DNA from: Paraspadella gotoi
Taxonomy: Eukaryota > Animalia > Chaetognatha
NCBI GenBank assembly: GCA_051294375.1
Contig: CM119266.1
Location: 21,829,875 to 21,893,874, forward strand
Reading direction: 5' to 3'
DNA: 64,000 bases
The position numbers and the translations under genes were made by a program. The notes under the pieces are model-generated. The model had not been told where the DNA came from, did no database searches, and was given only the letters and a program-made list of their open reading frames with translations. The stretch's first letter is position 1. Each line of letters opens with the position of its first letter. This document shows positions 1 to 62,419 of the stretch, piece after piece.

Positions 1-1496
1 ACTTCTCCGTCATTGAAGTTCCCATGGATTTGGACCTGATACAACAGAAATGGGATCATGGTCTCTACGTCGACCTTCCGACATTCCGCGCCGACCTCAC
101 CCTCCTCTTCGACAACGCCATCAAGTATTTCGACCCGGCGACGATGGTTTACCACACCGCGCGCCGTCTCCGCCACTTTGTCAAGAAGATAACCGGTCGG
201 GATAAGTTGTTGGAGATGAAGCTGCGATTTCCTTCGCTGCTGGCGGGAATCGGGATCGAAGAGCTTGGACTCGACGAGGCAGAGTTGACGGAGAACTGCA
301 GTGCGGCTCGAGACGACGAGGGAAATCTCGTGGTCGAAGTTGCCGAACCTACGGATCACGACGAAGACATGAGGATCGAATGGGTTCGGACGGAACTCGG
401 TGATCGGGCGGGCGGAAAAAACTTCGGCGTCATCAAGAAAACCGCCGCCGAGAAGCCTTCGGCTCGAAAACCCTTAAGCGATAACGTCTCCACCCAAGAG
501 GTGTTGACCACATGGATGAGCCAGGTCGGCGGCGCGGGTCGCAAAGCGACGCCAATGACAAAGAAGCCCAACCCAATGCTGTCACGTCAGAGCGAAAACG
601 GATTAACGACGCTCTCCATTCTGAACCCCGACAACGCGGCTGTTGCGGTCGATGCCAATGGCGAAGCTGTTTATCGGCCGGACGCATCCGAAGCCAACGC
701 CGCTGTTTCGCTGAAGCAGACGCTGGGTCGGGTGGCCGTGGGTTCCGGAGGCGTGGCCACTTACAAAGAAGATCGCCGCAACTCTGTCAAGCCGATTAAG
801 TACATCGAACGGACGGCGTTTTGCTCCTTCGGTCCCACCTACGATTCCCGCTTCTCCAATCTATCCAAATCCGATTCCGATGATCTCATTTCCGCCTTTC
901 ACGAAGAGTCTGACTTTCGCTTCGCTGACGAAATAAAATCCGCCATCCGTCAGGCGAGTGACTATGAAATCCACGCCGTCGACGGGCTGCTTGACGTCAT
1001 CACCGGGGGAAAGCATTCCGAGCAACAAAACGTCGTGGACAGTATTAAAGCCTTCGAAGAGGCCGAGGAGACGATGAGGAAAATGGCGGAGGCTTCGGGG
1101 TCGCGAGTGGACGATGATGAAATCATGGAAGTCGAGCAAGCTTCGTCGTCGAACTCGCTAAGCGTATTGCTCGATGACAACGCCTCCAACCTCTTGACGC
1201 TTCGGAACATTCAAAAAGCCCGTCTCAGCCGAGCGCCTCCCCAGCATCTGGCACTACTTAAGGGTCCCCCGGAGGAAGAGTTCGAACTCGCGGACAAAAT
1301 CACTTCTGGACTCTCCTCATTAACCAAAATGTCGGCTCCTCAAGATCTCGTATCGAGTAAGGTTATCCTTGCCGCTTTGGGAGTAGATCTCCTTAAGCAC
1401 GTTAAGAATCCGATGGAAGTCCCGACACAACCTTTCGCCAAAGAGGACGTTCCCCAAAACGTGTTCTCTCGAACCTTCGGGTCTTTTTTGTCCTGA
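1..1496 (+). CDS. Bromodomain-containing protein BRD7/BRD9-like, 5' end truncated by window edge
   Basis: Frame is open from the window edge. It has the bromodomain C-half (VPMDL...FRADLTLLFDNAIKYF) and the BRD7/9-type motif SFGPTYDSRFSNLSKSDSDDLI. Stop TGA at 1494-1496. Confidence 0.8.
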   Translation, partial: FSVIEVPMDLDLIQQKWDHGLYVDLPTFRADLTLLFDNAIKYFDPATMVYHTARRLRHFVKKITGRDKLLEMKLRFPSLLAGIGIEELGLDEAELTENCSAARDDEGNLVVEVAEPTDHDEDMRIEWVRTELGDRAGGKNFGVIKKTAAEKPSARKPLSDNVSTQEVLTTWMSQVGGAGRKATPMTKKPNPMLSRQSENGLTTLSILNPDNAAVAVDANGEAVYRPDASEANAAVSLKQTLGRVAVGSGGVATYKEDRRNSVKPIKYIERTAFCSFGPTYDSRFSNLSKSDSDDLISAFHEESDFRFADEIKSAIRQASDYEIHAVDGLLDVITGGKHSEQQNVVDSIKAFEEAEETMRKMAEASGSRVDDDEIMEVEQASSSNSLSVLLDDNASNLLTLRNIQKARLSRAPPQHLALLKGPPEEEFELADKITSGLSSLTKMSAPQDLVSSKVILAALGVDLLKHVKNPMEVPTQPFAKEDVPQNVFSRTFGSFLS

Positions 1497-1648
1497 AACT
1501 GAGCTAGAAGTTATGCATCTTAATAAAATACAGTTTTATAATTTAGCTTATTCCTTCATATGATAATTTTATTTCTTAACAAGTTTTTCTTGATCGATTT
1601 TTTGAACTGCAAACTAGTACATCCATCACCGTTGAGGATTTTAAAATC

Positions 1649-3701
1649 ATGAATCGCCTGCTTGTGATTTTACTCTCTCTCTCTGCGCTCGCTCTGAGCG
1701 ACATCGCCGAAGAGGAAGGGGTTTTAGTTTTAACCACCGCCAACTTTGATGACGCTCTTAACGATAATCAATACATTCTAGGTAATTCTAAAAGCTCCTT
1801 TTAATTCGTCTGTTCTTAAACGCGTGGTCCTATACTCTAACACAAACATGTTTGTTTTGATTTAGTCGAATTTTATGCTCCTTGGTGTGGACATTGCAAA
1901 GCGCTTGCTCCCGAATACGCTAGCGCCGCCACTCAGTTAAAAGATGCAGGGTCAGATGTTAAACTTGCAAAGGTATTTGTTAGAATGGAATACGTATTGG
2001 TTTTGTTTATAATTTTAGTTTTAGTATTGTTTTAATAAATTTATCACATAATTTAATTTAATTATTCGAGGTGGACGCCACCATTGAGTCTTCCCTAGCC
2101 GAGAAGTTTCAAGTCAGCGGCTACCCGACGATCAAATTTTTCAAGAATGGCAAACCCTCTGACTATACCGGCGGTCGCACTTCCAACGAAATCGTCGCTT
2201 GGCTCGGCAAAAAGACTGGACCGCCCGCCAAAACTCTCGCGACTTCCGAAGAACTAGAATCCTTCGTCGAAAGCGCGGAGGTCGTCGTCGTTGGATTTTT
2301 CGCCGACCCCGGAAGCGAAGCCGCTGCTGTTTTCCTTGAGGCCGCGGGCGACATCGATCTGCCCCTGGGTAAGTTAAGCAGGGTTCGTATTTGGAACTTC
2401 GATGAATGTCAAATTATGACCGCACATTAATGTCGACTTTATATCCCTTTTTTTCTGCAGGCATCGTTTCCTCGAACGATCTCGCCGCCTCCAAAGCCGT
2501 CTCCGACGACGCTGTGGTCCTTTTCAAAAAGTTCGACGAGCTACGCAACGATCTCCCCGCCGCCGACTTGACCGTCGAGGCCGTCAAGAAACACGTACAC
2601 GTAAACTCTCTTCCATTGGCAGTCGAGTTTACCCAAGAGACCGCGCAGAAGATCTTCGGCGGCGACATCAAGAACCATCTGCTCCTTTTTGTCTCCAAGA
2701 TAAGCGAAGACTTCAAGAAATTGCTCGACCAATTCCAAAAGGCGGCCAAAGCTTTTAAGGGCGAAATCCTTTTCATCTACATCGACGTTGATGTCGAAGA
2801 TAACGAGAGAATACTCGAGTTCTTCGGATTGAGCAAAGAAGATTGCCCCACCGTTCGTCTTATCAATCTTGGCGACGACATGATAAAGTTCAAACCGGAT
2901 GCTCCGACTTTGACCATGGAGTCGATTCAAAAATTCGTTCAGGACTACAAGGATGGAAAACTCAAACCGTTTCTCATGTCGGAAGAAGTAAGGGGAAAAT
3001 AATGAGAAGATGATTCTCCCATGCTATTTTATAAATAATTGAAAATAATAATAATAATAATAATAATAATTAAAACAATGAGACTGGCATTGTTTAGGTT
3101 CCCGAAGACTGGGACGCCATGCCCGTCAAGGTTCTGGTCGGCAAGAATTTCGACGCCGTTGCAAAAGACCCTACGAAAAACGTTCTTGTCGAATTTTACG
3201 CTCCGTGGTGCGGCCACTGCAAGCAGCTGGCACCAATCTGGGATCAACTGGGGGAGAAATACAAGGACAGTCCCGACACGGTCATCGCTAAAATGGATGC
3301 CACGGCCAACGAACTCGAAGACGTTAAGGTTCAGTCTTTTCCCACCATCAAATTCTTTCCCGCAGGTAAGGGAACTTTGAAGAGTTTAAAGCTGTTTGTA
3401 ATCTTCAGTTTTTTTTTATTCACTTCTTATTTTTCTCTTTGTTCGATTTACTTTCATATTACATAATTACTTATCAGGTGCCGATTCTCAAGTCATCGAT
3501 TATAACGGTGGCCGGAACTTGGATGGTTTCGTCAAATTCTTAGAATCGGGTGGAACCGAGGGAGCCGGTGGCCCCGATGATGGGGAGGAGGAGGAAGAAG
3601 AGGAAGAGGAAGAAGACGTGGAGCCAGAAGAGGAGGATGCTTCCCCAATGGACGGGGAAGAGGAACAGGAAGAAGAGGAGCCGGAACACGATGAGTTGTG
3701 A
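1649..3701 (+). CDS. P4HB: Protein disulfide-isomerase (PDIA1/P4HB-like), 6 exons (~1649-1781, 1866-1972, 2071-2368, 2461-2987, 3098-3366, 3478-3701)
   Basis: Signal peptide [17 protein letters not shown], two [10 protein letters not shown] thioredoxin active sites, an acidic tail and a C-terminal HDEL retention signal. GT-AG introns join the exons. Confidence 0.93.
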
Positions 3702-4074
3702 TTCCCTCGGAAGATCTCGATTATCGGACGCATTTTTATTGCGTATTCGTATTCATCCACCGGGTCCGGTTTTGTTGGTTTATCGCCATATATACATAAT
3801 ACATATACGTAGATGTAGTATTGTAGCGAAAACTAGTTCAAAATTAGCCAACGAACAACAAATAATATACTTTCCCTAAAGACTTTTAGACAAAACAATT
3901 TTTTTACCGATGGATGTCTTGTTGCAGTTCTTAATATACATAATGAAATAGAAACCTATCAATTTTAAATTGCTAATTCCATTTTTGTAGGCAATAAGTT
4001 AGTGCTACATTTTCACACGATGGTGACGTGAACTTCTCACGATTTTTTCTCCGTCACATTTGAAACATTTGAGG

Positions 4075-6318
4075 ATGAGATTTTTAAACTCCCACACCAC
4101 CGCGGCGATGACGGCGACGTTGCCTCGATTTTCTAGTCGCGCAAACTATTTATGGGCGCTCTTCGTTTTCCTCGTGCTGGAAGGGGGAGTCTCCGCGTCG
4201 CAGCCGGAATCTGGTTGTCGGGGCGTCGCCGTCGCTTACGGCGCCCTCGGCCTCGATCGGGAGGACGTTCCATCGACGCCAATTTCCGGTCGTGATTTGC
4301 GCGTCTGCGCCTCTCCGCACTCCTGCTGTACGCGATCCATGGAGACCAGGCTTTCCTCACTGGCTAGGGTCGACGTTGACAAGGCGATGACGGATTCGCT
4401 TTCTCACCTGCGTCAGACTTTCGTCGTTCATACGGCCAAGTTCGATTCCTTCTTCAATGAACTGTTGAAAAACGCCGAGTTCGATCTGAACAAAATGTTC
4501 GTCCGTACGTACGGACTTTTGTATCAACAGAACTCTTATGTCTTTATGGACTTGTTTAAAGACCTGAGGAATTACTATCGGGGCGGCAACCTCGATCTCG
4601 GCGACGTATTGGATTCCTTTTTCGCCACTTTACTCCAGAAAATGTTCCAGTTGTTAAACGCCCAGTACTACATGGACGAGCTCTACTTGAGCTGCGTATC
4701 CAACACTATGGACGACCTAAAACCCTTCGGCGATGTTCCGCGTGAGTTTTTCTTTCCGATGTATTATGTATTCTTACATAACGCTCTAGAATCAATATTT
4801 GTTTCAACAGAGCGGCTATCCCTTCAAATCCGCCGCTCTTTCGTGGCCGCGCGAACCTTTGTCCAGGCCTTATCGGTCGGTCGCGACGTCGTCCACAAAA
4901 TCTCCCAAGTTCCTCTATCACCCGAATGTCACAACGCCCTCGTCAGCATGGTCTATTGTTCTTACTGCCGCGGACTCCCCTTTCTCAAACCTTGCAACAA
5001 ACTCTGCCTCGATGTAATGGGCGGTTGCTTGGCTCAACATAAGGAGATTAACAGCGCCTGGGATAAATACATTGGTGAGCGTTAAAAACTTGAAAATGAA
5101 CAACACAGATAACAAATAAATTGAACGATATTTGATATTTTAGTGATTTTATTTTTAATTACTCATTTTAAACAAAATACAGATCATCTGCTGCTTCTGG
5201 GTGACCGTTTGGAGAGCTCCTTCAACATCGAGCAAGTTATAGAACCGATCGACGTCAAAATATCCGACGCCATCATGCACTTTCAGGAAAACGGAGCCGA
5301 TGTGACGAAGCGTGTCTTCAGGGCGTGCGGTCAACCTCGGCATCATCGCCGTCGGAGAGACGTCGGTGGTGAGTCCGACGAGCCTGCCACCACAACCTTC
5401 CCGTCCACGACCTCCGAACCGCACCTCAATGAGAATACCACTGACAACGCCAATACCAAAGATGACGTCGTCTATATTGACGACGACGAAGCTAACGACG
5501 ACGCTCTCCGTCGTCAAGTGGCAATTACCAAAGATTCCGATCAACCTCTTGGTAAAAGCAATAAGACGAAAAAATCCAAAGAAGCTAAGACCCGTCGAAA
5601 GCGCAAAAAGACTCTTGGCACGACCGAGATGCGCTACGAGCGACCCGAAAAGGGTCGTAAACCTCTCATCTCGAAGCCTGGTGGTCTTTCGCTCGACCGT
5701 CTCGTCAGGGACATCAAAAACAAGGTGAAGATCGGGCGAGGTTTTTGGTCTCACCTGCCCGATTCTCTATGCAACAACGATAAGTTATCTGCCTCCGCGG
5801 ATATGGAGGATAATTGCTGGAACGGCGAGGGTCGCGGTCTCTACGAGGGCGGTCGCGCCAATGAGATCCAGGAATCGCGCCTGGGTCGCGAGATAGTCGA
5901 CGATCAACTTTTTTCTTTGAAATCGATCGCAGAGAAGCTGCGCTTGGCTTTTAAAGGAGTCGAAGTCAATTGGATGGACAACGCCGTCGCCGATTGGACG
6001 GGCGGATCTGGCGACGGCAGCGAATACGACGATGAAGAAGACGACGAAGGCGACGATTATGATGTTGAAGATGATTGGAGCGGATCTGGCAGCGGATACG
6101 ATGACTTGGGATCGGGAGGCGATATCAGCTTCGATCCTGAGAATCCTCAGAGACCCGACATTAGTCACCTCCCTAAAGATAAACCCAGAGTTGGCAAGAG
6201 TTGCCAGGCGGGATCTTGCGATGGCAGCGGCGCGTCCGCGTCTCATGCTGCCGTTTCTTTCGCGGGATTCGTTTGTGCTACTGTGGTTCCCTTGGTGACG
6301 AGTGCTTTTACACGTTAG
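4075..6318 (+). CDS. Glypican (GPC4/6/dally-like type), 3 exons (introns ~4742-4810, ~5074-5182)
   Basis: Signal peptide and glypican Cys pattern (LRVC..SCCTRSME, LKPFGDVP, CSYCRG..KPC..LC..VMGGCLA, CWNG). Also a furin site RRRR, Ser-Gly heparan-sulfate attachment sites in an acidic context, and a hydrophobic GPI signal. The start could instead be ATG 4108. Confidence 0.92.
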
Positions 6319-7048
6319 ATGGCGCGTCTAACCGCACCTTACCCTCAGTAGTGTCTTTTTCTACCACCTATCCTTTTCGTGGCAATCCTCGATTCAACGC
6401 TGTGTGACAATTCACCATTTGTTGCTATGGAAGAAACCTTTTTTTTTCAAATTATTCTTCCACTGTTTACTCCTTTTTGACTGTTTTCTTTCCTCAACTT
6501 TTTTTGCACTATTCGAGGCGAATAAGTTTGTTGAACTTCTTTACTCATCCTGAAACTGGCTTTTTATTTTTTAACTTTCACTACTATCGTGTTATTTGTT
6601 GCTCACACGAAGAGCTTTCTGAATATATTTACCTCATACAGATGTTAATATTACAAGTGGTGTGCTATCATGTACAGTATAGCTTTAGTTACTGCAAATT
6701 CTTTTCATTATTACTACTAGTAATCATTACTTTCGAACTTTTTGTTGTTGTCTATCTATAAAATCCTATGTTTGAAATTTATCAAAAAAATTTTGGTAAC
6801 GCTTTTTTACAGTATTTTGTTAGAAATTAGATTTTAATTCCTTTGTTTTTAATACGTAACAAAGATACTCGCGAACGAAAACTTATCTATTAATAAAACT
6901 TGTTTAGTTAGACATTTAGTTTTTTACATTCCCTAGATGCCACAGCATAGACAACATATAACTCGGTAACTGGCCGAGAAAAATTTAAATTTACGAAATC
7001 ATGTTCGCATCCAAATTTGTGATATGACGCTACAAGCACTTCACCAAC

Positions 7049-10000
7049 ATGTCGCTCTCGTCGATGAGAGGTAGCGCGTCGTCTACCCCGCGCAGCGTTA
7101 CCGCCTCAGCGCGGATATTGACGCCATCTCGCTCTGGCGTTCCTCATTCAAGATCGTCTTCGAGTGGCGTCACTTTTCGCCCACCCGACGCAGACGGACT
7201 ATCACTCAGTCTCTCCGGCGCGTCTGTATCAACAGCCAAGCAGGTTGGTCATCTCAATTTAATATGAAATTGGTACAACCAATATATATTATATATATTA
7301 CATATATATTACATCCGCCTGTCTGTACTATGTATTTTGATTTAATTGAATTTCAACTCTCCATTTATTCTTTTAGGGCTCTCAGCGAGGATCTTCCTCC
7401 GCATCTCGGCGTTCTTTGACTTCTCCCGCAGAGGGTCGCCTTCTTAGATTTCCCACACCGGAAAATTTTTCGCGTGGAGCCGCTTCAAAGGAGGCGGGCA
7501 ACAGGAGGCCTCGCGTACCCGCTCGTCTGGAAGCGACTTCTCACCGTGATTCCCGCATAACAGTTGCAGACTCCCTCTCTCATCGTTTTACAGCGAGCGA
7601 CGGTCCCAGAGTCTCGACTCCCGCGTCGTTCTCATTCGCTCCTGATTCGCTCGACATTTTGGACAGCGTCAGTTCTTTCGAGGCCAACGAGCGAAGTTTT
7701 TTAGAGCTCGAGGAGCAGGAAGCTGCCGAGGGAGCAGGAGCCGCCGCCCCATCAAACCAAATCGGCCCCGTGTCTCCTGGAGAACTAAAAGAAGCCGAGG
7801 CCTTCATTCATCTCCTCAACAGTTCCGCTGCCAAAATCCAGTCGTGGTACCGACGCCACTCGCGGCGTCGCAAGGCCGGCGAAGCGGCTCTTAAAAGACT
7901 TCTCGCCGGTAAGAAGGAGGAGGTAGAGAGAAAGAAGGCCGAGGAAAGAAATCTTTCGGAGCAGGAGCGATTAAAGGAGGAAGAGGCGAAGAAAAGGAGG
8001 GAGGAAAAGGCAAAGGAGGCCCGACAGCGTGCTATTCTCGAGTTGGCCAAGAAGAGGGAGGCCAAGAAGGCAGAGACAAAGCGTATCGCCGAGGAAGAAG
8101 TAAAACGCGTTGCGGAGCGACGCGAAGTCATCGCCAAAAAGAAGAAGAAAAACTCTGTGTTGGCGAATTTGGCTAAGAACGTCAATCTTAATTCTCCGCC
8201 CATCGAGCGAGAAAGCTACGGTGATTCTACGACTCCTCCCGAAAAAATGCGCTCCGTGGATGGATCGCCCGAGAGGGGGCAGGTCGACGACAATTCCCTT
8301 TTCGGCACTTGGGCTTCCGGTAGCGCTCTTCATTCCGAGCGCGATCGGAGCGAAAAAGCTGTCAACGGAGACGACGACGATGTCGCAAGCAACGAAGATA
8401 CTGCCTCTAGATTCAGTAGAGACACGAAAACTTTGGAAGCCGGGCCCTCGACGGTCGCCGGCAATGCCGCCCTCGAGGATCTCCTCGATTCGTTAAAGAC
8501 GTTGGAGGCCGACGACGTCTTGGACGCCGGAGCCAAGAAAAATGCGGATAAAAAGAAAAAGGGACCCAAGTGGCTCGAGGAAATCGACGCCATCGAATCT
8601 GGAAATTCAAATTTTTCTCTTCGTCCCGAGTTTCCAAATTCGGAGACTTCGTCTTCTTCAAAGCGATCGGGCTACTTAGACGCCGGCAATCTTCAAAGGT
8701 TGAGTCTCGACGGAAACTCGCGGCCCGCTTCGAGAAATGGGCAGAACGGCACTCTTAACGCTTCCTTACGCTCTGCCGGAAGCGTTTCGTCTTTGCTCTC
8801 GGACGGGAAATTACAGAGCATCTTGGACTTTTTGAATCAAGTGGAAAAGGCGTCGAATAAAGACAAGGCGATGGTCGAGCGTCAGAGAGTTGAACTGAAG
8901 AACCGTCCACTCCCGACGGTGGAACCGATTCCCATGAAGTTGGTTCGTACGCCATCCCCCGCTCCACCAGTCGTTGATGTCGAAGAGCAGTTGGAATTGC
9001 AACGCCGCGCCGTCAGCGACGCCGCTTCCGAAGTCTCGCAGACGGTCAAACATCTGCGGATGGAATTGGAGGAAAAGAGCAAAACCATCGAAAAGTTGCA
9101 AAGATCCTTGGCTCAGCAGCGCGAATTAACCGTGCGCCATGCCAAAGAGACGGAACGAGAAATGACGCACAGGTTGCACCTGCAAAAGGATGAGTACGAG
9201 CAAGCTATTCAGCGGCACCTCTCCTTCATTGATCAGTTGATCGACGATAAAAAGTCCTTGGGAGAAAAATGCGAAAATCTTGTCAGCGAGATGAAGAAAA
9301 TGGAGAAAAAGTTCAACTCGAAAATGCAAACGTTGACCGACAATCATCGCGTGGAACTAGAGAGAACCAAAGAACTTCACGCGGCTGCCGAAAAGATGCG
9401 CCGTGAAAAATGGGTGGAGGAGAAAACGAAAAAGATAAAAGAAATCACAGTGAAAGGGTTGGAGCCGGAGATTCAAAAGCTCATCGGGAAGCACAAGGCC
9501 GAAGTGAAGAAACTCAAATCTCTTCACGAGGCCGAAATTTTGGCCTCCGACGAACGAGCCGCCGGGAAGTATGTCCAAGCGACAGAGGATCTTCGCGATC
9601 AACTCAACGCGGAGAAGGAACGCGCCATTGCTCGGGAACGCGAGCTCTCTCAAAAGAAGTTCGACCAGCAACTCGACGATGAGATGAAGGCCCTCGAGAC
9701 TCAAAGGCGGAGGCTTTACAACGAAGTACAAGAAGAGAAAGATCGGCTGGCGGAACAGGCGGCCCGACAGAGAGCTGAACTGGATCGGATTCAAATCAGG
9801 CTCGAGGACACTCATCAAAAGACGGCCAATGCCATCGCCGAAGAATACGAAAAGGCCAAAAAGGAGCAGAACGCAAAGCATCAGATGGAGCTTAAAGAAC
9901 TTAAAGATCGGATGGAAGTAGAGAAGACTTCCTGGATGGAGAACATCATGAAGAAGCAAGAGTCAGTAATTAGCCAGAAGGAGAGAGAGTTAAAAGAAAA

Positions 10001-10667
10001 AGTCAGGAAGGAGCGAGACAATGAGATCGAGGCCGTCATCGCTCGTCTTGAAGAAGACTTGACTAATTCTAAGGAAGAAGCCGAGATCGCTTCCGAGAAC
10101 CGCGTCAAGAGAATACAGCAAAAGTGCGATATCGAGCTGAAAGAGATGGAGGCGGGAGAGAAGGCCGCACTGGAAAAATACAACGAAATGAAGTCGCGAC
10201 TTCTGGACGTGGAATCCAACGCGGAGCGCCTCAAATCCTCTTTGCGGCAAAAGACGGAAGCTTTGGAACAGGCCACGGAGACCTTGGACCGACTAAAAAC
10301 CGAGCGGGGCCACGCCAGCGAAATAATTCGGCAAGAGTTCGCGGACCGCATCGTCGCCACCGATGAAGAGAACAAAAGAGTCCGCATGGAAATGAACGAG
10401 ATGAAGGCGAGGCATCGGCACGAGCTGGAGAGGGCGAGGAACGATGTTGAAAAGACGCTGCGGGACAAAGACGACGAGTTGGAGGAAGTGCACAAACGAG
10501 TCAAGTCGGCGATCATGAAGAAGGAAGAGACGGTGGCCAGCATGCGAGATCAATACCACGCGGCGGTAAAACGGGCTGATCACCTCGAAGGCCTGTTAGA
10601 GCAGCAGAGGAAGCAGCTGCTCGGCGCTGTCGCTTCCGGAAAAAATACCAGCCAAAGAAAAAACTGA
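7049..10667 (+). CDS. CEP131: Centrosomal protein CEP131 (AZI1), 2 exons (7049-7243, 7377-10667)
   Basis: IQ-like motif (AAKIQSWYRR), long coiled coil, and the conserved segments IQRHLSFIDQLIDDKK, KIKEITVKGLEPEIQKLI and AAVKRADHLEGLLEQQRK. The phase-0 intron joins in frame. Confidence 0.88.
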
Positions 10668-49863: not shown

Positions 49864-52800
49864 ATGTCCACGAAGAAGAGATCTCTCAACACTGCGCAAG
49901 AGACGCTTCAAAAACGTGCGCGGAAAAATGAGGTCGATAGCGACGACGAGGTCGAACTTGGTCCAGATTCTTTGTATAGCGACGACGAAAATGAGAACGA
50001 GGGTCAAACTGGCATCATCGAAAAGATTTGCCTCAAGAACTTCATGTGCCACACTGCGCTCGACATTAATCTTAACAGAAACGTCAATTTTATCGTCGGC
50101 CGAAACGGCAGCGGAAAGAGCGCCGTCATGACCGCCCTCGCTGTCGGCCTCGGCGGTCGGGCCCGGGACACGTCGAGAGGATCCTCCGTCAAGGGTTTCA
50201 TCAAAGCAGGAAAACCTTTTGGGGAAGTGAGCATTAAACTTTCCAACACTGGCAACGACGCTTACAAGCGCGACGTTTTCGGCGAAAGCATCGTTATAGA
50301 AAGACGATTCACGCAGTCAACATCTGGTTACAAACTTAAGTCCGCGGCGGGGCAGACGGTATCGACGAAGAGCGAAGAAGTCAGTCGGCTGTTGGACCAC
50401 TTTAACATCCAAGTCGATAATCCCATCTGCATGCTGAATCAAGATACTTCGAGAAACTTTCTCTTCAGTAAAAAACCCGAAGACAAGTACAAGTTTTTTC
50501 TCAAGGCGACAGAGCTGGAGAAAATGCAGTCGGAATACGAAGCGGCGGCGGTGAGTCACGATGAGTCGATGAGGTTTATTCAGAGTAAGAAAGAGTCCTT
50601 GCCGCATCTCGAGTCCGAGTTGAAGGTGTGGGAGAAAAAGGCCAAAGCCTTCACCTCCATCGACGAGTTAAAGGCCAAAGTTCACACACTCAAAAACGAA
50701 CTCGTTTGGACTCTGGTAAACCAGGACGAAAAGAAGCTGCAAGAGTTAAATCGCGGACTGAAGGAAGCGGAGGGCCGAAGACCCGCTCACGTTAAAAAGG
50801 TACAGGAATCCGAGGAGAAGCATAAAAGCGCCCTCGAAAAGAAGAAGGCCTTGGAAGCGAAAGTCGGAAGCGTCGCCAGGTGTCGGGACGAATTCGACGT
50901 CAAACTGAGAGATTTAACCAAGAACAAAAACGCTGCCCTGTCAGAGAAGAACAAGGCGGAGACAAACGTCCGCTATTCCTCCCGAGACATCGACCAGTTG
51001 CAACGCGACGTCAAATTGTTGGACGACAGAATTAAAACTATTCTTGAACAGAACAACAAAGATTACTCGGAAGACAAGAGAAAGAGGGAACAAGAAATCG
51101 AAGCGTTGGAGTCTCGGATCAACGAAACGAAAGCTCAAATGACGACCAATGAAAATCTGTTGGAACAGTTTAACCGAGCGGTTACCAAATACAAGGAAGA
51201 TATTTACAATCTCCAACGCGATCACAACGAGAAAAGCTCGACCATTCGAAATCTTAAGTCGGAGATTACCAAGTTTAAAAATTCCAAAAACGACAAATGG
51301 GCGCGTTTCGGTGATTGGGTTCCTAAAGTAAAGAGCGACATTCAAACTGCTCTTCGACGAGGAGTTTTCCGTTCGGAACCAAAAGGACCAGTTGGGGCTT
51401 ATTTGGAGCTCAAGCACGAAGAATATTCCCTCAGCATCGAAGCTTGTTTAGGGGGATTGATGACCACGTGGGTTGTCGACAACGCCAAGGATCTTGTTGA
51501 ACTGGAAAAGTTAATGCGTCGTCACACCCCGCGGCTCCCAAATCTTTCCGTTTCAAAGTATTTAGATCGACGCCACGACGTTTCGCGTTTTCAAGCGGAT
51601 AACTCTACTTACCCATGTCTCTTTGATCTTATTAAAGTCAATGATCCAGTCATTTTCAACTTTCTCGTCGACGCTCGAGGGGCAGAAAACGTTCTCTTTA
51701 TCCTTGACTCGGACGAGGCTCGTCCAATCCTTCAACGCAATCCGCCACAAAACTGCAAAGAATGTTTCACTCGTGCCGGGGATCAAATCTTTGCCGGCGG
51801 GGAGGGTGGTAACTATCGCTACTACTCGGCGGAAGCCAACGGCAGAGTACGCTTCCTCGTCGCTGATCACTCTGCAGCGGTGGCCGTGATGGAGCAGGAG
51901 CAGCGCCGGCTCGAGGCGGAAGCCGAGACGATCGCTCAGTCGTTGCGCGCCGTACAGGCGGAAATGGAGAGTAACAAACGGGAAAAGTTCAAGCACGATC
52001 AGCACATGACTCGTCTTAGGCAAAACCTGGCCAAGATTCAGACGGAGTGGACGGACTTGCGCGCAGTCGAAGACCCGATGCCCATCGACGTCACGACTCT
52101 GCGTGAGGATCTAGATAATCTTACCTCGGAAATTGGAAAGAAAAAAGAGGTAAAGGCCGAATGGGAAGAGAAATTAAGCGTGCTTTCCACGCGCGCCGCC
52201 GATGCGCAAGCCAAGTTTGACGAGGTGCAGACGAAGCTCCTCGATTTGGTGACCAACAGCGAGAACGACGCTCTTGAACTCAATGGAATCCTGAGCGACT
52301 TGCCCCGACTGCAGTCGAACATATCGCACTACATGGCAAAGATGGATCAACTGGAAGAGGATGTGCGGAATAAAACCGAGGAACGCGATCGACAGAAGGA
52401 ATTGGTCGACGAGAGAGTGGGGAAGGCGGGGACGGTTTGTCCGCGGATGAGAGCCAAGCGAACACCGGACCACCTTAAGTCGGAGATCGTGCAAATCGAG
52501 AAACGCATAGAGTCGGAAGAAGAGATTCACGGCGACAAGGAGGTCGTCCTTCAGAGCTACCGAGAGAAAAAAGCTCACGTTGAGGACATTAAGAGCAAAA
52601 TTGCGGGACTATCTCACTTCGCCGGCGTTTTCAACGAAATCATGAGCAACCGCAGGGAGAACCATAATCTCTTCAAACACATGCTGGCCCAACGGATTCG
52701 CGCCTTTTTCGCGAACATGCTGGAACAGCGCCAGTATCGGGGACAGTTGAAATTCGATCACGACAAACATACGCTCGACATTCATGTGCAGCCTCAGGCG

Positions 52801-53145
52801 GATGCTTCCCAGCAAGGAGACATGCGTCAACTCTCTGGCGGAGAGAGGTCTTTCAGTACAGTCTGCTTCGTACTGTCGCTTTGGGAGGCTATGGAATCCC
52901 CTTTTCGCTGCCTGGATGAGTTCGACGTTTTTATGGATAACGTGAACCGCGCCATCGCCATGCAGATGATGATTCACACCACAGAGAAGCACAAGGAACA
53001 ACAGTTTATCTTTCTCACTCCTCTCGATATGTCGCACCTAGGAGGGAAGACGGGACTCAAGATTTTCAAGATGCCTGATCCAGAGAGAGGGCAGACAACG
53101 CTTGATTTTAAGAAAAAAGACGAAGATAACAACAACGAACATTAG
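49864..53145 (+). CDS. SMC6: Structural maintenance of chromosomes protein 6, intronless
   Basis: LKNFMCH, Walker A GRNGSGKS, QVDNPICMLNQDTSRNFL and a hinge domain. Signature LSGGERSFSTVCF and Walker B FRCLDEFDVFMD are SMC6-type. Confidence 0.95.
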   Translation: MSTKKRSLNTAQETLQKRARKNEVDSDDEVELGPDSLYSDDENENEGQTGIIEKICLKNFMCHTALDINLNRNVNFIVGRNGSGKSAVMTALAVGLGGRARDTSRGSSVKGFIKAGKPFGEVSIKLSNTGNDAYKRDVFGESIVIERRFTQSTSGYKLKSAAGQTVSTKSEEVSRLLDHFNIQVDNPICMLNQDTSRNFLFSKKPEDKYKFFLKATELEKMQSEYEAAAVSHDESMRFIQSKKESLPHLESELKVWEKKAKAFTSIDELKAKVHTLKNELVWTLVNQDEKKLQELNRGLKEAEGRRPAHVKKVQESEEKHKSALEKKKALEAKVGSVARCRDEFDVKLRDLTKNKNAALSEKNKAETNVRYSSRDIDQLQRDVKLLDDRIKTILEQNNKDYSEDKRKREQEIEALESRINETKAQMTTNENLLEQFNRAVTKYKEDIYNLQRDHNEKSSTIRNLKSEITKFKNSKNDKWARFGDWVPKVKSDIQTALRRGVFRSEPKGPVGAYLELKHEEYSLSIEACLGGLMTTWVVDNAKDLVELEKLMRRHTPRLPNLSVSKYLDRRHDVSRFQADNSTYPCLFDLIKVNDPVIFNFLVDARGAENVLFILDSDEARPILQRNPPQNCKECFTRAGDQIFAGGEGGNYRYYSAEANGRVRFLVADHSAAVAVMEQEQRRLEAEAETIAQSLRAVQAEMESNKREKFKHDQHMTRLRQNLAKIQTEWTDLRAVEDPMPIDVTTLREDLDNLTSEIGKKKEVKAEWEEKLSVLSTRAADAQAKFDEVQTKLLDLVTNSENDALELNGILSDLPRLQSNISHYMAKMDQLEEDVRNKTEERDRQKELVDERVGKAGTVCPRMRAKRTPDHLKSEIVQIEKRIESEEEIHGDKEVVLQSYREKKAHVEDIKSKIAGLSHFAGVFNEIMSNRRENHNLFKHMLAQRIRAFFANMLEQRQYRGQLKFDHDKHTLDIHVQPQADASQQGDMRQLSGGERSFSTVCFVLSLWEAMESPFRCLDEFDVFMDNVNRAIAMQMMIHTTEKHKEQQFIFLTPLDMSHLGGKTGLKIFKMPDPERGQTTLDFKKKDEDNNNEH

Positions 53146-53284
53146 AAAAACAAAAAAGCGAAATTAACTGTGATAAAAATACATTGTTAGTCTATTGTTA
53201 GTCTATTTCAATTGATCTTTTGAATTTTATTTTAAAAATGTTATCAACTGTTAAAACCTTTATTTTTAGAGAAAATGCTGCATC

Positions 53285-54778
53285 ATGGATTTTCAAACGG
53301 TTCTCAAAACGAGACTAGAAAAGATAATTTATCTTTTAAACGCTTACGATTGGCTCCTCGACTCGTTCGTCGTAGAATTCTTCACGGACAAACATTGGGA
53401 CAAATTACCTCCCAAGTGGCAGTCAGCCTTGGGAGACATTTCCGGTCCAGAGATTTTAGGGAAGCTACTCGACCCCGCCTCCCCGCTGGTTATTCCGTCC
53501 CCGAAAAAGGACGAGCCTCCTGGAAACCCTTGGCCACTTTCCCTTTTGGCTTTTCGTGGCGCCTGCCACGCCCTCGCGCTTCCGCGGTCAAGCAAGGATC
53601 GTCTTGAGAATCCGACGAATCCAAAAGTTATTCAATACACCGACGAGATTGATCACTTGTATAGAAAACACGTCAAACCCAAGAAGCAGCACGAAATAGT
53701 TCGACTGGCTAAGCTCATCGATGAAGTATCGCGGGCCAGCGATTCCGGTCACGTGATAGATTTCGGTGCCGGCAAGGGTCACCTGTCCCGTTTGCTAAGC
53801 TACATCTACGGCAAACGCGTCACTTGTATTGAGGCCGAGGATGGATTTTCCTGCGGCGCGCGGAAATATGACGACGAAGTTGTGAAGGGGTTAAGGAAGA
53901 AAAAGCAGAGACAATCTCACGATGTCGACGAGACGAGCCTTCGAACCGACCTTCAGCCTCGGCACATCACCCTCAAGCTGCATCCAGATATATCGGCTTC
54001 TGAGTTCGGCGACGCTGTGCGATACGACGCGACGACGCTGTCTTCCGATTCCGATGCGACTTCGGTGATGTTGCCGTCGAAAAGGCCGAAGGAAGACGAC
54101 TCCCTCGTAATTGCGGGTCTTCATGCCTGCGGGGATTTATCCACCGCTATGCTGCGTCTCTTCGTCCAATCCCCCTCCGCCGTCGGCCTCGTCTCCGTCG
54201 CCTGCTGCTACATGAAACTGTCCGAACGCGCGGGCGCCTCCTGTAAACACTCGCAGGACGCCGTCGGATATCCGATGAGTCGCGCTGCCGCTGCCTTTCC
54301 GAAGCATCGACTCAGCTACGAGGCGAAAGAGTTGTCCTGTCACGCGCTAGAAGTGTACTCCGATCGTCTCAAAGAAGAACTTCCTCGATTGCGCGTTCAT
54401 TGTCACCGCGCGGCTTTGGAGGTGCTCATTCGTGAAGTTGCGCCTCACCTCGTAAAACCCCAAGTTCGGGGTGGCAAGAAGCTGGCATCTATGCATTTTT
54501 TCGAATACGCCCAAGTCTCCATGAGCAAATTAGGTCTTGATTGTAACCTCTCGTCCGAAAAGCGTCTCGAGGTGGCGGCCATGTTGGAAGATTGGCGATC
54601 CGTCGTGGTTCATTACACGTTACGTCTCTTGATGGCGCCGCTCGTTGAATCCTGCATCTTGCTCGACCGATTGCTCTATCTCGCCGAAAACGGCGTCCGG
54701 AGAGCATGGATCGAGCCAATTTTTGAACCTCGCGTTTCGCCGAGAAACTTTGCTATCGTCGCTTTGAAGAATAAATAA
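53285..54778 (+). CDS. RRNAD1: Methyltransferase-like RRNAD1/METTL25B, intronless
   Basis: KHVKPKKQHEI, VIDFGAGKGHLSR, GLHACGDLS..LRLF, CCYMKL, LAPLVES.ILLDR-type segment and IFEPRVSPRN. Confidence 0.88.
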   Translation: MDFQTVLKTRLEKIIYLLNAYDWLLDSFVVEFFTDKHWDKLPPKWQSALGDISGPEILGKLLDPASPLVIPSPKKDEPPGNPWPLSLLAFRGACHALALPRSSKDRLENPTNPKVIQYTDEIDHLYRKHVKPKKQHEIVRLAKLIDEVSRASDSGHVIDFGAGKGHLSRLLSYIYGKRVTCIEAEDGFSCGARKYDDEVVKGLRKKKQRQSHDVDETSLRTDLQPRHITLKLHPDISASEFGDAVRYDATTLSSDSDATSVMLPSKRPKEDDSLVIAGLHACGDLSTAMLRLFVQSPSAVGLVSVACCYMKLSERAGASCKHSQDAVGYPMSRAAAAFPKHRLSYEAKELSCHALEVYSDRLKEELPRLRVHCHRAALEVLIREVAPHLVKPQVRGGKKLASMHFFEYAQVSMSKLGLDCNLSSEKRLEVAAMLEDWRSVVVHYTLRLLMAPLVESCILLDRLLYLAENGVRRAWIEPIFEPRVSPRNFAIVALKNK

Positions 54779-54963: not shown

Positions 54964-57711
54964 ATGTCCTTATCGAACTTTCTCGGCGGCTCTCATCCGC
55001 TTCCCCCGGAAAAGACGGCTGAGTTGAAGCAGATCATTCATGATCACTTGCGAAAGATCGACTTGCAGGCGACGCTGAGGGAGACGTTGGAAGAGACGTT
55101 GTTGGCGGAAGGCGTCGGCGAAGATGGAAGGCAGAATGGAGACCCGGAAATCATCGACGAGAATCGACTCATGGCCGCGATTCGCGAAAAAGGAATCATG
55201 GACAAGATCATGCGCGACCTGGGCTTCGACTCGTACGTCGATCCCCCCGTCCCTCCGTTGGCTACCGACATTGCTCCGCCCCTGCCTCCGAATCCCCCGA
55301 CGCGCGTCTTTGACGCCGAGGAGCCCTCGTCTCTCCTTCCACGCAAGACTCGCGTCGATCCCGCCAAGCGCCATCTTTTCTTGCAATTTCTCGGTGGTCG
55401 CGCCTTCATAGATTACATCTCTCTGATGTCTTCCGACACGTCGGCGCCCAATTATCCGGGCGCGTCCAATAATTCTTCTACGTTGACCTTGCACGCTCAT
55501 TATCGTGGCCAGCGCTTCCGCTCTCGTCCGGCGATATGCGCGTGCGAACCGGACCTCAAGGAGGGTTTCCTGTTGGAGTTACACAACGAGGCTCTCGGAG
55601 CGGCAGCACGAATGGCGACGCCCCCCACGTTGATGGCGATGGCGGAACCGATTCATTTAGTACTGATCAAAACGACGCCGTCGGGCGATCGCTCATTGGT
55701 TGCCTCTCACCGTCTCGAGTGGCGGACGGCGTTGTCCGCGCCCAATTCGCGCAAGAACATCGCAATCGAGCTGATGGGCGTCGGGTCGGAGAGCAAGGTG
55801 CCCGTCGGAGTCTTGGAAGCTAAGCTGGAGATCATTCCCGCCGTCGAAGGTTTTCCATCAATGTTATTTGGAAATATTTAATTTTTATAATATAATTTTT
55901 AATATAATTTTTATTGATAGAAATCGTACGTAATAATTAATAAAGTTTTATTTATTGTTTACCTACTTAGAGTTGAATGAAGACGTCGTGATCGCGCAAT
56001 TGGCATCGGAGAAAGCGAAAACCACCGAGAAAGAGCGCCTCTTTCTCAGTTATGCCAAACAGTGGTGGAGGGAATTTTTGAATATAAGGCCGGAACATTC
56101 CCAAAGATTAGTCAAGGTTTTATTGATTGTACACAGACGAAATAGGTTTATTTCCATTCCACGTTTGGCGAAAGTTAATGTCCAACAAACGCCATTTATC
56201 GTTTTCCACACGAGGTTATGCCAATCTTTATAACTGGCTTTTCATTATTTTTTCGACAGATTTTCGCCCAGGACGAGACAGGTGCAAATCGTCCGGTTTG
56301 TTCCTACGTAAAGCCTCTTCGATGCGGCCGCCTCCTCGATTCTCCGCGGCACGCGGCCAGATTTGTGAGTCTTTTGAGTTACGAAAAGATTCAACCTTTC
56401 GGTGGATCTTTCGTTGAGCAGGTGCGGTCTTATTTATTTGCATTTTTTTAAATTTCGTTTTAGATTTTTAATAATTTTTTTCATGAATAACGTTCGATAT
56501 TTTATTTTATTTTCTCTCCGCAAATATAACTTTTTTTTAAAAAGTCAGGATTCTTTGGTCTTTTAAATTTCCTATTTTATCACTTAGTGGTACACCACTT
56601 TCGCTCTTTTAACTCGCGCCCGGGGCGATGTGGAGCCTCACGCGTGTCTTCTCTGCTCTCTTCTTCTTGGTTTCGGTCTCGACGCTTACGTCGTCATGGG
56701 AACTCGCGTTCGTGAGACGCGTCCCCACGCTTGGGTATTGACTCGTTCCGGCTCTGAGGCCACCTTTTGGGAGAGCCTGACTGGACAAACCTCTGTCCAT
56801 TCGCCGGCTACGCTGGGCGACTTGGCGTCGATGGAGACGTCGGCAAAACTTTCAACGACCCACCGTTACGCAACCGTCGGTTGTGTTTTCAACCACGAGA
56901 CTTTCTACGCAAACATTCAGCCTCTGAGCGAAGTCGGAGTTTGCCGTTTTGACTTTGCGGTGAGTTTAAAGTCCGCTTAAAAATTGCATAAGAATTAATG
57001 AATTGAAAAATAATTTGCTTTTCAGGACGAAAGTAGATGGAAAATGCTTTCACCTGGCGCCATCGCCTCCGTTTGTGCCTTATCGCCGGAAACTGCGACT
57101 CCTCCATGTATGGAAAGGATTCCACCGCTTACTGCGCCAAATTTGGACCCAACCATTCTGGCTAACGATTTGGAGATTCAGTTGCGAAGTCTAATCGCCG
57201 GTGTGGATCTCGTCTTTTGACAATTACTAAATATTTTTTTAAAAAGTTTTTCATTAACAGAGCACAGACAAAACCTTGGTCTGTTAACGGCCTGGGACGA
57301 CAGATTGGCCTACATGCTTCATCCTGCCTTAGCTGCCTACGAGCTCGATAAAATTATGGGGCCGGGCGCTTCCGCCAAAGTCAACGAAGATTTTCAACAA
57401 GCCATTCGGAATTCCATCCCAGAGGGTCACACGTTCAAGGGTACAACAACAACGATTTAGCCTTGTGAAAAATCGACCTGGTCGATTCATTCCAAATTTC
57501 TGTTTTTTTTTCAGGGTTTCCTCTGTTGGTTCTCCATCGAAACGCGGGTCGCATTATGTCGACTTCGCTTCGATCCTCCGACTTCGACGACGTCGTCTCG
57601 TGTCGCGGCGATCACGTCGCACTCGCCGTTAGAGTCCACGTCACCCTTCATCCTGAGAACGTTCTTTCGGCCTGGATCATGTTCGCCTGCCGATACAAAC
57701 TTTTGTTATGA
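54964..57711 (+). CDS. CEP76: Centrosomal protein CEP76, multi-exon
   Basis: LPPEKTAELKQIIH, QRFRSRP..CACEP, YAKQWWREFL.IRP.H, GRLLDSPRHAARFVSL, HACLLCSLLLGFGLDAYV and C-terminal WIMFACRY. Confidence 0.92.
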
Positions 57712-57883: not shown

Positions 57884-58856
57884 ATGGTGGATTTCCAACC
57901 TCCGCCGGGCGGCGTTCCCACCACCGTCACCGCCACGGTCCACCAAGACGAGGACGAAGAACCTGTGACGGCGACGGTGGCTTTCCATTCGCCGTCGATG
58001 TCTCCGTCGTCGCGCGTCCATCATCGACGCGACGTCCCCGACGTTCAAGAACTGCCCATGTCTCCTGCTGCTGGCGGCAGGTGCGTTTTGGCTTTTGATT
58101 TCTACTCCATAAACAACAGGGTTGTGGTTTTTGTTTTGACCGTCGCTTTTAAAAATTGAAATAAATTGCATGTCGGAGACGCACAAGAAAATTATGTCCC
58201 ATCACAATCTTTCGCTTTTTCACAACCTCGATCTTCTTTTTTATTATTCACTTTATCGCTGCCCCGCCCACTGGTCGTCGGCCGCAAAGGAGCGGACCCG
58301 TTTCCTCTCTATATCAGTCCCACCATCACTTTTCTCCCTTTCATCACTCGACCCCTTTGCTCCGAGCCGGAGATGTTTACTCCGATAGAAGGGGTTCTCT
58401 GCCAGGGGGCGAGGTTTATCCCATGAGGTAGTCGATACTATTTTTACGCATGAAATATAAAAAAGTTAGTTTGAAAGTTTAATGTAGTGTATATTGTCAC
58501 GGTGGTATAACACTTGGTAAGTGTTGTATTTTTTGTATTTTATTTCTTCATCGCTTCAACCGGTTTTAATTTCGTAGGGTGCAGTAGAAAGTTTTGTTTT
58601 CGATTGACGTCTTTTCGGTTTACCTTTGATCGCCTTACCGAATTTTTTCAAATGAAAGAATAATTTTTTTTTACATGATCAGTGTAATATAATTTTTTTT
58701 TCATTTTACTTTTATTTCTTATTATTTTAGTTTTTCTTTGATTTTTCTAATTTTTTCAAATTAACAAAAATATTACTTTTTGATTAATACTATTAATACA
58801 ACATTACTCAATTAACTAATTATTACTGTATTTATAATTGTATTTGTAAGTATTTT

Positions 58857-58893
<37 letters not shown>

Positions 58894-61800
58894 GGTCCAA
58901 CGAGTTTTCGCTCTGCTGACAGTTATCCTGTTATTTGATCGAAAACTCCTATTCGCGTTTTTCAGATCGATGACACAACGTACTCTGCCCACTTTGCGAA
59001 ACGTCGTGGGCGGAACCTCTTGCCGCAGCGAAAGGTCGTCTCCCTCTCACGCTCACTACTCTCCTCAGCACCAGGCTTCGCCGTCGTCGTCGGTCAAAAC
59101 TTCCTCTTATCATCAACACCACCCTACCGCCCACCATCACCACCACCACCATCACAGTCCACGTCAACTCCCGTCCATCCCGGCGGGTTCTCACTCGGCC
59201 ACCGTCGATCCGCCCGGCGCGGAGAGGCTCTGCTCAACGACCCACCCCGCCGACTCTCCGAGACAACTTAGGAACATTCCAGCTTTTGCCGGTAATTATG
59301 GCGAGCTAAAAAAAAATATTGCGTATGATTTTTCCATAATAAAATAAAGAAATACTCGAAAGCCCCTTTTCGTCGTTGTTATGAAGATTATTAAAGATGA
59401 TAACGAATTAAGAAAACAACTACGTAATATTCAACAATTTAAAAACTTAACGAGAAAGTAACTGCAACGAAATTTAAATCTCACCAGATTCGCCGATGGA
59501 AGGGTCGACGTCGTCTCTACCCGAATCCTCTTTGCTCGCGGTTCCCTCGTCGTCGAGCAACCAGGGCGGAGCCGCTCCGTCGCCCTCGTCCTCTTCTTCT
59601 TCGTCCTCGCATCAGGCGGCGCCAGGTGCGGCGCCTTCTCATCGCGCCCATCGTTCATCGCGTCATCGGCGACACGGATCGCCACCGATCCCGGCCCACG
59701 TGCCCTTGGACGAGTCCTACCCTTTGCACGACGCCGTCTTTCACGGGGACGTGAGAAGAGTGGCGCACTTGCTGCGCACCAACCAAGTTCCTGTCGGATC
59801 AAAGGTAGTCTATTCAAAAAAAAAGTTAAAATGATTCTATTTTTATTTTTAAAATTTTTGTGTATTCGATCCGTTTGATTTCATTCAATTCGCGCGTGTG
59901 ATTCTAGGACATTCACGGAAATACGGCTCTTCACATTGCTGTCTCGATGGGACGCAAAGATTGCATTCATCTGCTGTTGGCACACAACAGTCCCATCAAA
60001 TTGAAAAATACCCAAGGTATTTATTTGTTTTAAATTTAAAATCTAACCATTCTCTCTCTTTCTGCCCCTTTCATATCATATTTTTTATTTAATCCAGGAT
60101 GGAGTTCACTCTCCGAAGCCGTTTCCTACGGAGACCGTCAGACGATTCTCTGTCTCTTACGAAAGCTCAAGAATCAGTCGCGCGACTCGTTGGAGGCGCG
60201 GAGACCTGACCTCATTCAAGCGCTCAACGATATGGGCGACTTCTATATGGAGCTCAAGTGGGACTTTCAGAGTTGGGTCCCTTTCCTCTCGCGGATTTTA
60301 CCGTCGGACGTGTGCAAGATTCACAAGCGCGGATCCTCGATGAGGTGGGGCTTTTGTAACCTACCTGGAATGTGTCTATATGTTAAACCCTATCAGTTTT
60401 TATTAGATATTTTAAAGGAAAATTATTCCTTCTTTTATCCGCAGGTTGGACACCACGCTGGTCGACTTTTCGGACATGCGCTGGGAGCGCGGCGACCTCA
60501 CCTTTCTCTTTAACGGTCGGGCGAAACCGACCAATTCTCTCGTTGTGATGGACAACCAGCTCAAAGTTTATCAGATGGTAAACCCTAAAATGGGAGTGTG
60601 CGACCTCTAACTGAAACCGGAAATCGACTTCTTATCGTTTCCCAGGTCCGATACGAAGAGACAGAAGCCGAGTTGGAGGACGAAGTCGACATTTTAATGT
60701 CGTCGGACATCGTTGCTGTGCAAATGTCCACCAAAGCCATTACCCTTGAGCGGGCTCAATCGGGTTGGCTGTTCAGAAAAGACCGGGCTGAATCCATCGG
60801 ACCATTCCAGGTAATTCTTTGTTAAAAATTTATTATCAACTTTCTCGTTTTTTTTTAATTTGTTAAAATCGCCTATTGTTTACTTCAATCACAGGCGGAA
60901 GTTTACTCCGTCCACGGCATGGTGGTTGACTCTAAAAAACGGCGAGAACACCTCACCGATGAAGATCTGCAAAAGAACAAAGCCATGTTCGAGTCTTTTT
61001 CCAAGGGGCGCGATATGACCGACAATTTCGATGGGCAGCCCCCGCGCAGACCAAATCTCGAAAAACCTCCCCCTACGAAAGTCACGTGGGAGGAATACAT
61101 CAACGCTCCAACAGGTATATGCTGATTCAGTTCGCGAGACGACTAATGACGAATATCTATCCCAACAGACAATTCACAAGTTAATCTGCTACATTTAATC
61201 CTACAAATCTTCTAGGAAAACCGCCGTATCTTGGACGTCCCATTGTTTGCAAGAATCAAAACAAATCCTTCAAAGCCTACCTGGCCATCTCCCAAGACTT
61301 TCCCATCGACTTTACCCGTTTGCTGGACGTCCTCGAAGTCGTCGCGCCCTTTAAACACTTCAACAAATTGAGAGAATTCGTAGAGATGAAATTACCACCG
61401 GGCTTTCCCGTTCAAATCGAAGTTCCAATTTTCCCCACAATCGTCGCAAAGGTTACCTTTCAGGTAAAGCCTGCCTATGTAGGAACAAGAACGGTAATTC
61501 CAATGTGTTGCGCCGCAGTGACTTTATTTTCACGTCTATTTCCTTTTGGTGACATGATATGACATGACTAAAAAACTTATTTGCCCGTGCCCATGTATTG
61601 CATCAAAATTCTGTCTTTTATTCTTTAGTTTTAGGAATCCCTGAAGGCGGCGATCTCAGTCTCTTTGATTTGAGGTTTTTTGTTTTAAAAAACGAGCAAC
61701 CAACTATAGGCCAATTACAGTCATTTTTAACGTAAGTGGGACAGACGGACCGAGCGAAAAGTGACTTAGAGTTGCTCCGCGAGTACTCGCGGCGCAACTA

Positions 61801-62419
61801 AAAATTGTGAAAAATTAACGGAACTACAAATTTGGTCCTGGACCAAGTTTTTTTTAGACAGGACATATTACCGCCTTTTATTTGCAAGCTTCAGAACTTC
61901 GGATCTGAATGTCGTCCGCCACTACTGATGGGTTAGACGTCCCGTCACGCTTACTAGGATTGGCGCGAATGCGAAGAGAGAATACTCAATATTGCGCCAA
62001 AAGGGTTGAACTGATGCAGTCATGCGGGTTGCGATAGTGAATGTTTCGCTACAGAAGTCTTCTCGTGTTAAAATAAACATTTTTTTGGAGTAAAACAAAT
62101 CTGCGATATGAGACTACCGTTTACTCTGATGACTTTTTATTTTTCTATAAGAATAAGATTTAAGAAATACTTAAACAAAAAACAACAATATGCAAATAAG
62201 GTTTATACATTTAATCTCATCGGAAATAATTTGCTTATTTTGTACGTACGTACGTACGTGGATTAATGGATCATGCGATGTAATTTTTAACAGAAACATT
62301 TTTTAAACTCTTTACAGGAATTCAAAGTGATGCCCGCCGAAGAAAGCGACGTCACCGCGGCCCTGTTCGAGATTCCTTCCGATTACAAGGAAGACCCGAA
62401 TAGATTTCCCGACTTATGA
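57884..62419 (+). CDS. ANKRD13C: Ankyrin repeat domain-containing protein 13C-like, multi-exon, with long His/Ser-rich N-terminal extension
   Basis: YPLHDAVFHGD, HGNTALHIAV, GDFYMELKWDFQSWVPFLSRILPSD and KLPPGFPV. The last exon (62318-62419) ends FEIPSDYKEDPNRFPDL*. Upstream exons 57884-58080, 58289-58427 and 58966-59291 splice in frame, but the start is less certain. Confidence 0.88.
58859..58891 (+). repeat. Poly(A) tract (~33 nt) in an ANKRD13C intron
   Basis: Uninterrupted A run, directly visible. Confidence 0.9.
61484..61804 (+). mobile_element. Probable non-autonomous Helitron/Helentron-type (HINE-like) insertion in the last ANKRD13C intron
   Basis: A 10-nt inverted repeat (gttgcgccgc 61507-61516 / gcggcgcaac 61789-61798), a ggacagacggac tract, and a terminal hairpin with the perfect palindrome ccgcgagtactcgcgg (61777-61792) followed by ctaaaaa. 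The 5' boundary is a guess. Confidence 0.5.

Follow-up and report, generated by a model that had tools for sequence, protein, structure and literature searches.

A run of at least 22 same-strand genes in the chaetognath Paraspadella gotoi, with leader trans-splicing and possible transcription as long precursors

Here we describe a 64,000-nucleotide (nt) stretch of the genome of Paraspadella gotoi (Chaetognatha; GenBank assembly GCA_051294375.1, contig CM119266.1, forward-strand positions 21,829,875 to 21,893,874; hereafter the window, numbered from its first letter), the plus strand of which carries 22 unrelated genes head to tail over 62 kb. This same-strand run is real and exceeds what chance would give, and leader trans-splicing inside it is well supported by assembled RNA contigs and published leader sequences. 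We assign a probability of about 0.5 to the reading that transcription of the run yields one long precursor or a few, of which at least one likely holds more than nine genes. The mechanism is already known in chaetognaths, and the possible size of the unit is what is new; a preliminary description of this DNA had implied more novelty for the mechanism than the published record of chaetognath leader splicing and operons allows, while its emphasis on length stands.

Gene starts and stops were hand-picked from the sequence and checked by script; exon models built automatically miss several internal exons, and only their ends were used. Pfam was searched with 82 plus-strand open reading frames (ORFs) and 1 minus-strand ORF. 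Matches at E ≤ 0.001 were obtained for 20 of the 22 genes, every gene being of a different type, in agreement with the preliminary description, which had reported at least 22 co-oriented genes and no tandem paralogs. The stop-to-ATG gaps have a median of 193 nt and total 5,920 nt, with nine shorter than 175 nt; 20 of the 21 are identical to those first listed, and the gap between the protein disulfide isomerase (PDI) and glypican genes is 373 nt or 406 nt, depending on whether the in-frame ATG at 4075 or the ATG at 4108 is taken. Only 1 of 99 minus-strand ORFs of at least 85 residues has a Pfam match, a weak Ion_trans (E = 0.0095, below cut-off) that lies antisense to the last glypican exon. 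A coding-score scan favors the plus strand in 246 of 533 bins and the minus strand in 23, 22 of which fall inside plus-strand genes, the remaining one being a bZIP exon. Neither tRNA genes nor Rfam matches that reach gathering score were found in the window.

The run is open at the left edge of the window, and at its right end stands a convergent minus-strand bZIP gene, which places the strand switch near 62.4 to 63.7 kb, as first proposed; four minus-strand AATAAA signals lie beside this gene, in 62420-63716. Under random orientation, the probability of such a run is 0.5^21 = 4.8e-7 per start (previously given as about 5e-7), corresponding to 0.005 runs expected per 21,072 genes, or to 0.066 per genome when the published Paraspadella share of candidate-operon neighbors is built in. 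A geometric operon-size model was discarded, as it under-predicts even the published nine-gene operon. The features are as follows.

1-1496, plus: gene 1, BRD7/9-like; Bromodomain and DUF3512; 5′ end outside the window
1582-1584, plus: trans-splice acceptor of gene 2; an RNA contig starts at 1584, directly after AG, with 9 non-genomic letters, TTGTTTAAA
1649-3701, plus: gene 2, PDI; thioredoxin domains; 5 spliced joints in RNA
4075-6318, plus: gene 3, glypican; Pfam Glypican
7049-10667, plus: gene 4, long coiled-coil protein, presumably CEP131-like; 1,096-residue ORF, spliced RNA contig, no Pfam match
11017-11019, plus: candidate acceptor of gene 5, AG before 11019; a contig fork with at least 255 unexplained letters
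11035-12171, plus: gene 5, SLC35F; Pfam SLC35F
12518-13408, plus: gene 6, MIZ/SP-RING finger protein; zf-MIZ
13566-14126, plus: gene 7, NUDIX hydrolase; NUDIX; which we take to be NUDT1-like
14237-15604, plus: gene 8, dual-specificity phosphatase; DSPc; presumably DUSP12-like
15752-19229, plus: gene 9, SMPD4-like sphingomyelinase; mit_SMPDase; at least 10 spliced joints in RNA
19336-20453, plus: gene 10, nitrilase family; CN_hydrolase; assumed by us to be NIT2-like
20596-20598, plus: trans-splice acceptor of gene 11, AG before 20598, 144 nt past the gene 10 stop; a contig enters the genome at its 6th letter
20647-27686, plus: gene 11, TAF1; TBP-binding domain, DUF3591, two bromodomains; 70% to named TAF1
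27928-29556, plus: gene 12, PH and SH2 adaptor; weak matches to PH (E = 9.5e-5) and SH2 (E = 0.0028), both under curated cut-offs; RNA contig over 28440-29681
29902-29904, plus: trans-splice acceptor of gene 13, AG before 29904 after a T-run; start of a 6,282-nt contig with 5 extra letters
29995-32728, plus: gene 13, EH-domain protein; two EH domains; 6 RNA joints; which we take to be REPS-like
33620-36275, plus: gene 14, SNW1/SKIP; SKIP_SNW; RNA joints
36498-38008, plus: gene 15, SDE2; SDE2 domains
38151-42843, plus: gene 16, MMS19; MMS19_N and MMS19_C
43015-47178, plus: gene 17, POT1-like; POT1 and POT1PC
47487-49566, plus: gene 18, serpin; Serpin
49864-53145, plus: gene 19, SMC6, intronless; SMC_N and matches to named SMC6
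53285-54778, plus: gene 20, METTL25B/RRNAD1, intronless; Pfam and protein matches
54964-57711, plus: gene 21, CEP76; four CEP76 Pfam domains
57884-62419, plus: gene 22, ANKRD13-like; ANKRD13_C; 5′ exons predicted from sequence
63714-63863, minus: last exon of the convergent bZIP gene (bZIP fragment 63717-63863); bZIP_1, E = 3.3e-5, below cut-off

The RNA data come from one public run, X1, which contains 0.84 of the sampled words of positions 1-10000 and was used in the form of assembled contigs. X1 was counted as RNA solely on contigs that skip GT..AG introns; because these introns are skipped and the contigs differ from the window by few substitutions (6 and 2 listed in two 20-kb stretches), X1 contigs are spliced RNA of the same species as the window. 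RNA was inspected over two 20-kb stretches, which include 15 gaps and reach the start of gene 16. At 3 of these 15 gene starts (genes 2, 11, and 13), a contig begins directly after an intergenic AG, at 1584, 20598, and 29904, with 9, 5, and 5 non-genomic 5′ letters, respectively; the letters are visible for gene 2 only, the ends at genes 11 and 13 being known from record coordinates alone. Among the contig 5′ ends listed, the three with at most 9 extra letters all stand directly after an AG, for which the chance is 5e-5, given that AG precedes 224 of the 5,920 gap positions. Each of the four AGs marked by RNA outscores every other AG within the 130 nt that precede its ATG, an interval picked after they had been seen.

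The 9 letters TTGTTTAAA are the last 9 nt of 25 of the 26 chaetognath leader isoforms in Table 3 of PMC2481426. The chance of this 9-mer under gap composition is 3.9e-5, and the chance of the match is estimated at about 1e-3 after ten to twenty comparable leader families are allowed for. Four copies of it occur in the window, none directly followed by GT, which rules out an origin as the tail of an upstream exon nearby. According to the same table, SL2 shares exactly its terminal 9 nt with SL3.1/3.2, and SL1 shares 5 with the other leaders; Paraspadella genes are each reported to receive several leaders (PMC12460157). An assembly graph of mixed leaders would fork where the leader forms part, so that contigs would keep 9 or 5 letters, and the observed lengths of 9, 5, and 5 equal these branch points. 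We infer that the two 5-nt ends, whose letters are not displayed, are leader too. The earlier proposal that a spliced leader is added at intergenic AG sites is thus supported by contigs at three of the inspected starts and by the fit of the 9-letter piece to published leaders. The window showed no donor site of the kind expected for a leader RNA.

Of the 15 inspected gaps, 5 are spanned by fully spliced contigs, the two largest (730 and 891 nt) among them. The crossings between genes 3 and 4, 6 and 7, and 13 and 14 are direct, and those between genes 7 and 8 (2,636 nt expected, 2,637 observed) and genes 14 and 15 (6,277 nt in both cases after removal of 18 introns) are by length sum. In the 730-nt gap, AATAAA stands at 6892, 156 nt before the gene 4 ATG, and most of the gap is likely 3′ untranslated region (UTR); because of this signal and the contigs over both largest gaps, the large gaps look like long 3′ UTRs. 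At the junction of genes 1 and 2, the stop lies at 1496, AATAAA at 1522, and the acceptor at 1584, 87 nt past the stop. Since those 87 nt include AATAAA, hardly any room is left for a private promoter plus an outron. TATAWAW occurs in 3 of the 21 gaps and is uninformative.

In the reading that we prefer, transcription through several genes would yield a long precursor, cleavage and polyadenylation would take place at the 3′ end of each gene within it, and a spliced leader would be added at the AG just before each next gene, giving single messages. The RNA upstream of each acceptor would be read through from the preceding gene rather than started at a private promoter. The preliminary description had put forward polycistronic units of unusual length, one or a few in number; we retain this as likely at the strength given above, with the limit that a contig over two genes proves no single transcript and that contigs show neither starts nor single molecules.

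Several observations weigh against transcription as long precursors. A 250-nt stop-to-ATG cut-off splits the run into blocks of 2, 1, 1, 1, 7, 1, 4, 1, and 4 genes, within the published maximum of nine. All RNA evidence comes from the assembled contigs of a single run, which display leader letters at one gene only, leave 6 of the 15 inspected gaps undecided, and were followed as far as the start of gene 16, short of genes 17 to 22. Among the loose contig 5′ ends listed, three more do not fit: no AG precedes those of 26 nt at 10859 and of 138 nt at 12496, and the 102 nt at 20453 do not resemble the leader. The fork at the AG before 11019 carries at least 255 letters that fit no published leader and, by a 17-letter probe, have no match in the window; it may stem from an assembly chimera, from a distant exon, or from a paralog. 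The gaps show no excess of acceptor-like sequence over shuffles, of which 117 of 300 and 96 of 300 reach the observed score, and a blind acceptor ranking left 29904 outside the top three of its gap. No named chaetognath protein is among the matches listed for SMC6, METTL25B, and TAF1, and SMC6 and TAF1 trees leave the window lineage as a long unplaced branch, the SMC6 tree having been built in quick mode without 4 of the 9 outgroup loci, which contain internal stops. The best named matches reach 39% for SMC6, at most 46% for METTL25B, and 70% for the TAF1 core; two further SMC6 relatives reach 67% and 60%, and a metagenome scan gave 40 SMC6 loci, none of which is a close relative. The leader end by itself, identical in 9 of 9 letters, makes a chaetognath source very likely; a homoscleromorph sponge was rejected as the source, since the top matches included no sponge and the leader is of chaetognath type.

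The strongest alternative is a chain of ordinary chaetognath operons of two to nine genes, interspersed with single trans-spliced genes and with compact promoters in the larger gaps, an arrangement that we regard as a serious but tentative possibility. A 2008 study of Spadella cephaloptera described leader trans-splicing together with an operon of two genes (PMC2481426). For P. gotoi, the reported figures are nearly half of genes trans-spliced, which extends leader addition to non-operon genes, and 18% of genes in operons, with a mean of 2.35 genes per candidate operon and a longest of nine, operons being set by gaps below 250 bp (PMC12460157). The same coding-end cut-off gives blocks of at most seven genes here, but it ignores UTRs, and counting UTRs would join most of the blocks. 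The chain also needs all of its units to be co-directed, of which the 0.066 runs expected per genome is the measure, and the two largest gaps are crossed by spliced contigs.

An extension of the long-precursor reading goes further, taking all of the at least 22 genes as one unit and chaetognath chromosomes as built with kinetoplastid-like directional clusters of 60 to 150 kb; we consider this rather unlikely. We are equally doubtful of its corollary, that the 250-bp cut-off has chopped such clusters into small operons and that a Spadella bacterial artificial chromosome (BAC) is a second example. On that BAC, 35A21 (158 kb), Table S5 of PMC2481426, which leaves out predictions without a database match, lists 24 predicted genes with matches, 19 on the plus strand, 4 on the minus strand, and 1 without a strand; gag or transposon labels mark three of the minus rows, and the fourth, unlabeled, lies beside one of them. 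The plus strand carries all 14 named host genes, which extend over some 120 kb of a genome of 1 Gb (PMC2481426), and clustered same-orientation genes were remarked on by the authors in 2008. The shared strand of those 14 genes also counts in favor of the long-precursor reading that we prefer, and it suggests that extended clusters on a single strand are typical of chaetognaths, maybe phylum-wide.

It is improbable that the genes share no precursor and that each has a private promoter and a short outron that is swapped for a leader. Many trans-spliced genes are reported to be monocistronic in chaetognaths and tunicates, and Oikopleura is reported to pack genes densely even outside operons, but strand uniformity would go unexplained, and such promoters would have to fit into the 87 nt that separate the stop of gene 1 from the acceptor of gene 2 and into nine gaps of less than 175 nt. 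Least probable of all is a compact genome of private promoters without trans-splicing, in which the extra letters would be contig-end artifacts or tails of small upstream cis exons: only 5 to 9 such letters are known, from one run, acceptor enrichment is not significant, and the compact annelid Dimorphilus is described, in the part of the source drawn on, as having neither operons nor leaders, yet all three short ends lie directly on an AG, the displayed end agrees letter for letter with the published leader end, the window lacks a donor-flanked copy of it, and the three lengths coincide with the leader branch points.

The genes of the run differ in intron content. Loss is patchy: TAF1 (20647-27686) is split by a single intron and has an exon of 5.8 kb, SMC6 and METTL25B (49864-54778) lack introns, and gene 4 has a 3.3-kb exon (7377-10667), while SNW1, SMPD4, and MMS19 retain ten or more short introns. 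RNA-supported introns have a median length of 79 nt (n = 29), and two likely GC-AG introns, in SNW1 (33988) and SDE2 (37014), have lengths that fit the spliced contig. An element of about 250 nt lies in an SNW1 intron (34933-35174, plus) and, inverted, in a POT1 intron (45547-45787, minus), the copies being 89% identical over 214 nt. Numerous X1 contigs whose flanks differ overlap this element (summed bin depth, 13,279), which marks it as a high-copy dispersed repeat; it has no credible Rfam match, and its folding z-score is -2.6. Two proteins carry N-terminal extensions without a Pfam match, with about 430 residues ahead of the first OB fold in POT1 (43015-44290) and about 150 acidic residues ahead of the TBP-binding domain in TAF1 (20647-21100). 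A run labeled as another organism, X2, holds short, exact, partly spliced PDI pieces (1891-3844, depth about 3), which are probably carry-over of the window animal's RNA; runs X3 and X4 have only short cross-matches to the window.

If transcription as long precursors holds, a unit of 10 to 22 or more genes would be at least level with the animal operon limit of 11 and might be twice that size. TAF1, glypican, and PDI would then be controlled mainly post-transcriptionally, in the manner of trypanosomes, in an animal of conventional body plan, and gap cut-offs may undercount operon size. A literature search that mostly excluded subscription papers and did not cover Supplementary Table 1 of PMC12460157 found no animal operon of more than 11 genes and no count of chaetognath strand runs. 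Reported sizes are two to eight genes in Caenorhabditis elegans, up to seven in Ciona, and up to 11 in tunicates. Further sources, most of them drawn on in part, are PMC7986045, PMC10282587, PMC7854359, PMC2566580, PMC2776167, PMC11067885, PMC1657053, PMC4122922, bioRxiv 10.64898/2026.06.08.730799, and bioRxiv 10.1101/2025.03.14.643333.

Among known systems, chaetognath operons share with the window short gaps, a mainly housekeeping gene content, the leader end TTGTTTAAA joined at an AG and, as the contig ends suggest, probably more than one leader form per gene. CpG observed/expected is 1.32 in coding sequence and 1.23 to 1.24 in gaps and introns, and this lack of depletion in the genes fits the reported loss of gene-body methylation in chaetognaths. 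The run differs from published chaetognath operons, the longest with nine genes, in having at least 22 genes and an open left end.

With the operons of tunicates and nematodes (Ciona, Oikopleura, and C. elegans), the run has in common head-to-tail unrelated genes that are resolved by a leader, although we take the leader sequences of those groups to differ from the leader end seen here. Oikopleura operons are reported to trend toward housekeeping and germline functions. Nematodes use a dedicated SL2, whereas chaetognaths are reported to have no operon-specific leader (PMC12460157). Kinetoplastid directional clusters (PMC9158160) are matched by the long co-directional series of unrelated genes, the convergent strand-switch end, and leader trans-splicing; unlike them, the genes of the window keep many cis introns, and canonical AATAAA is present in 9 of the 21 gaps.

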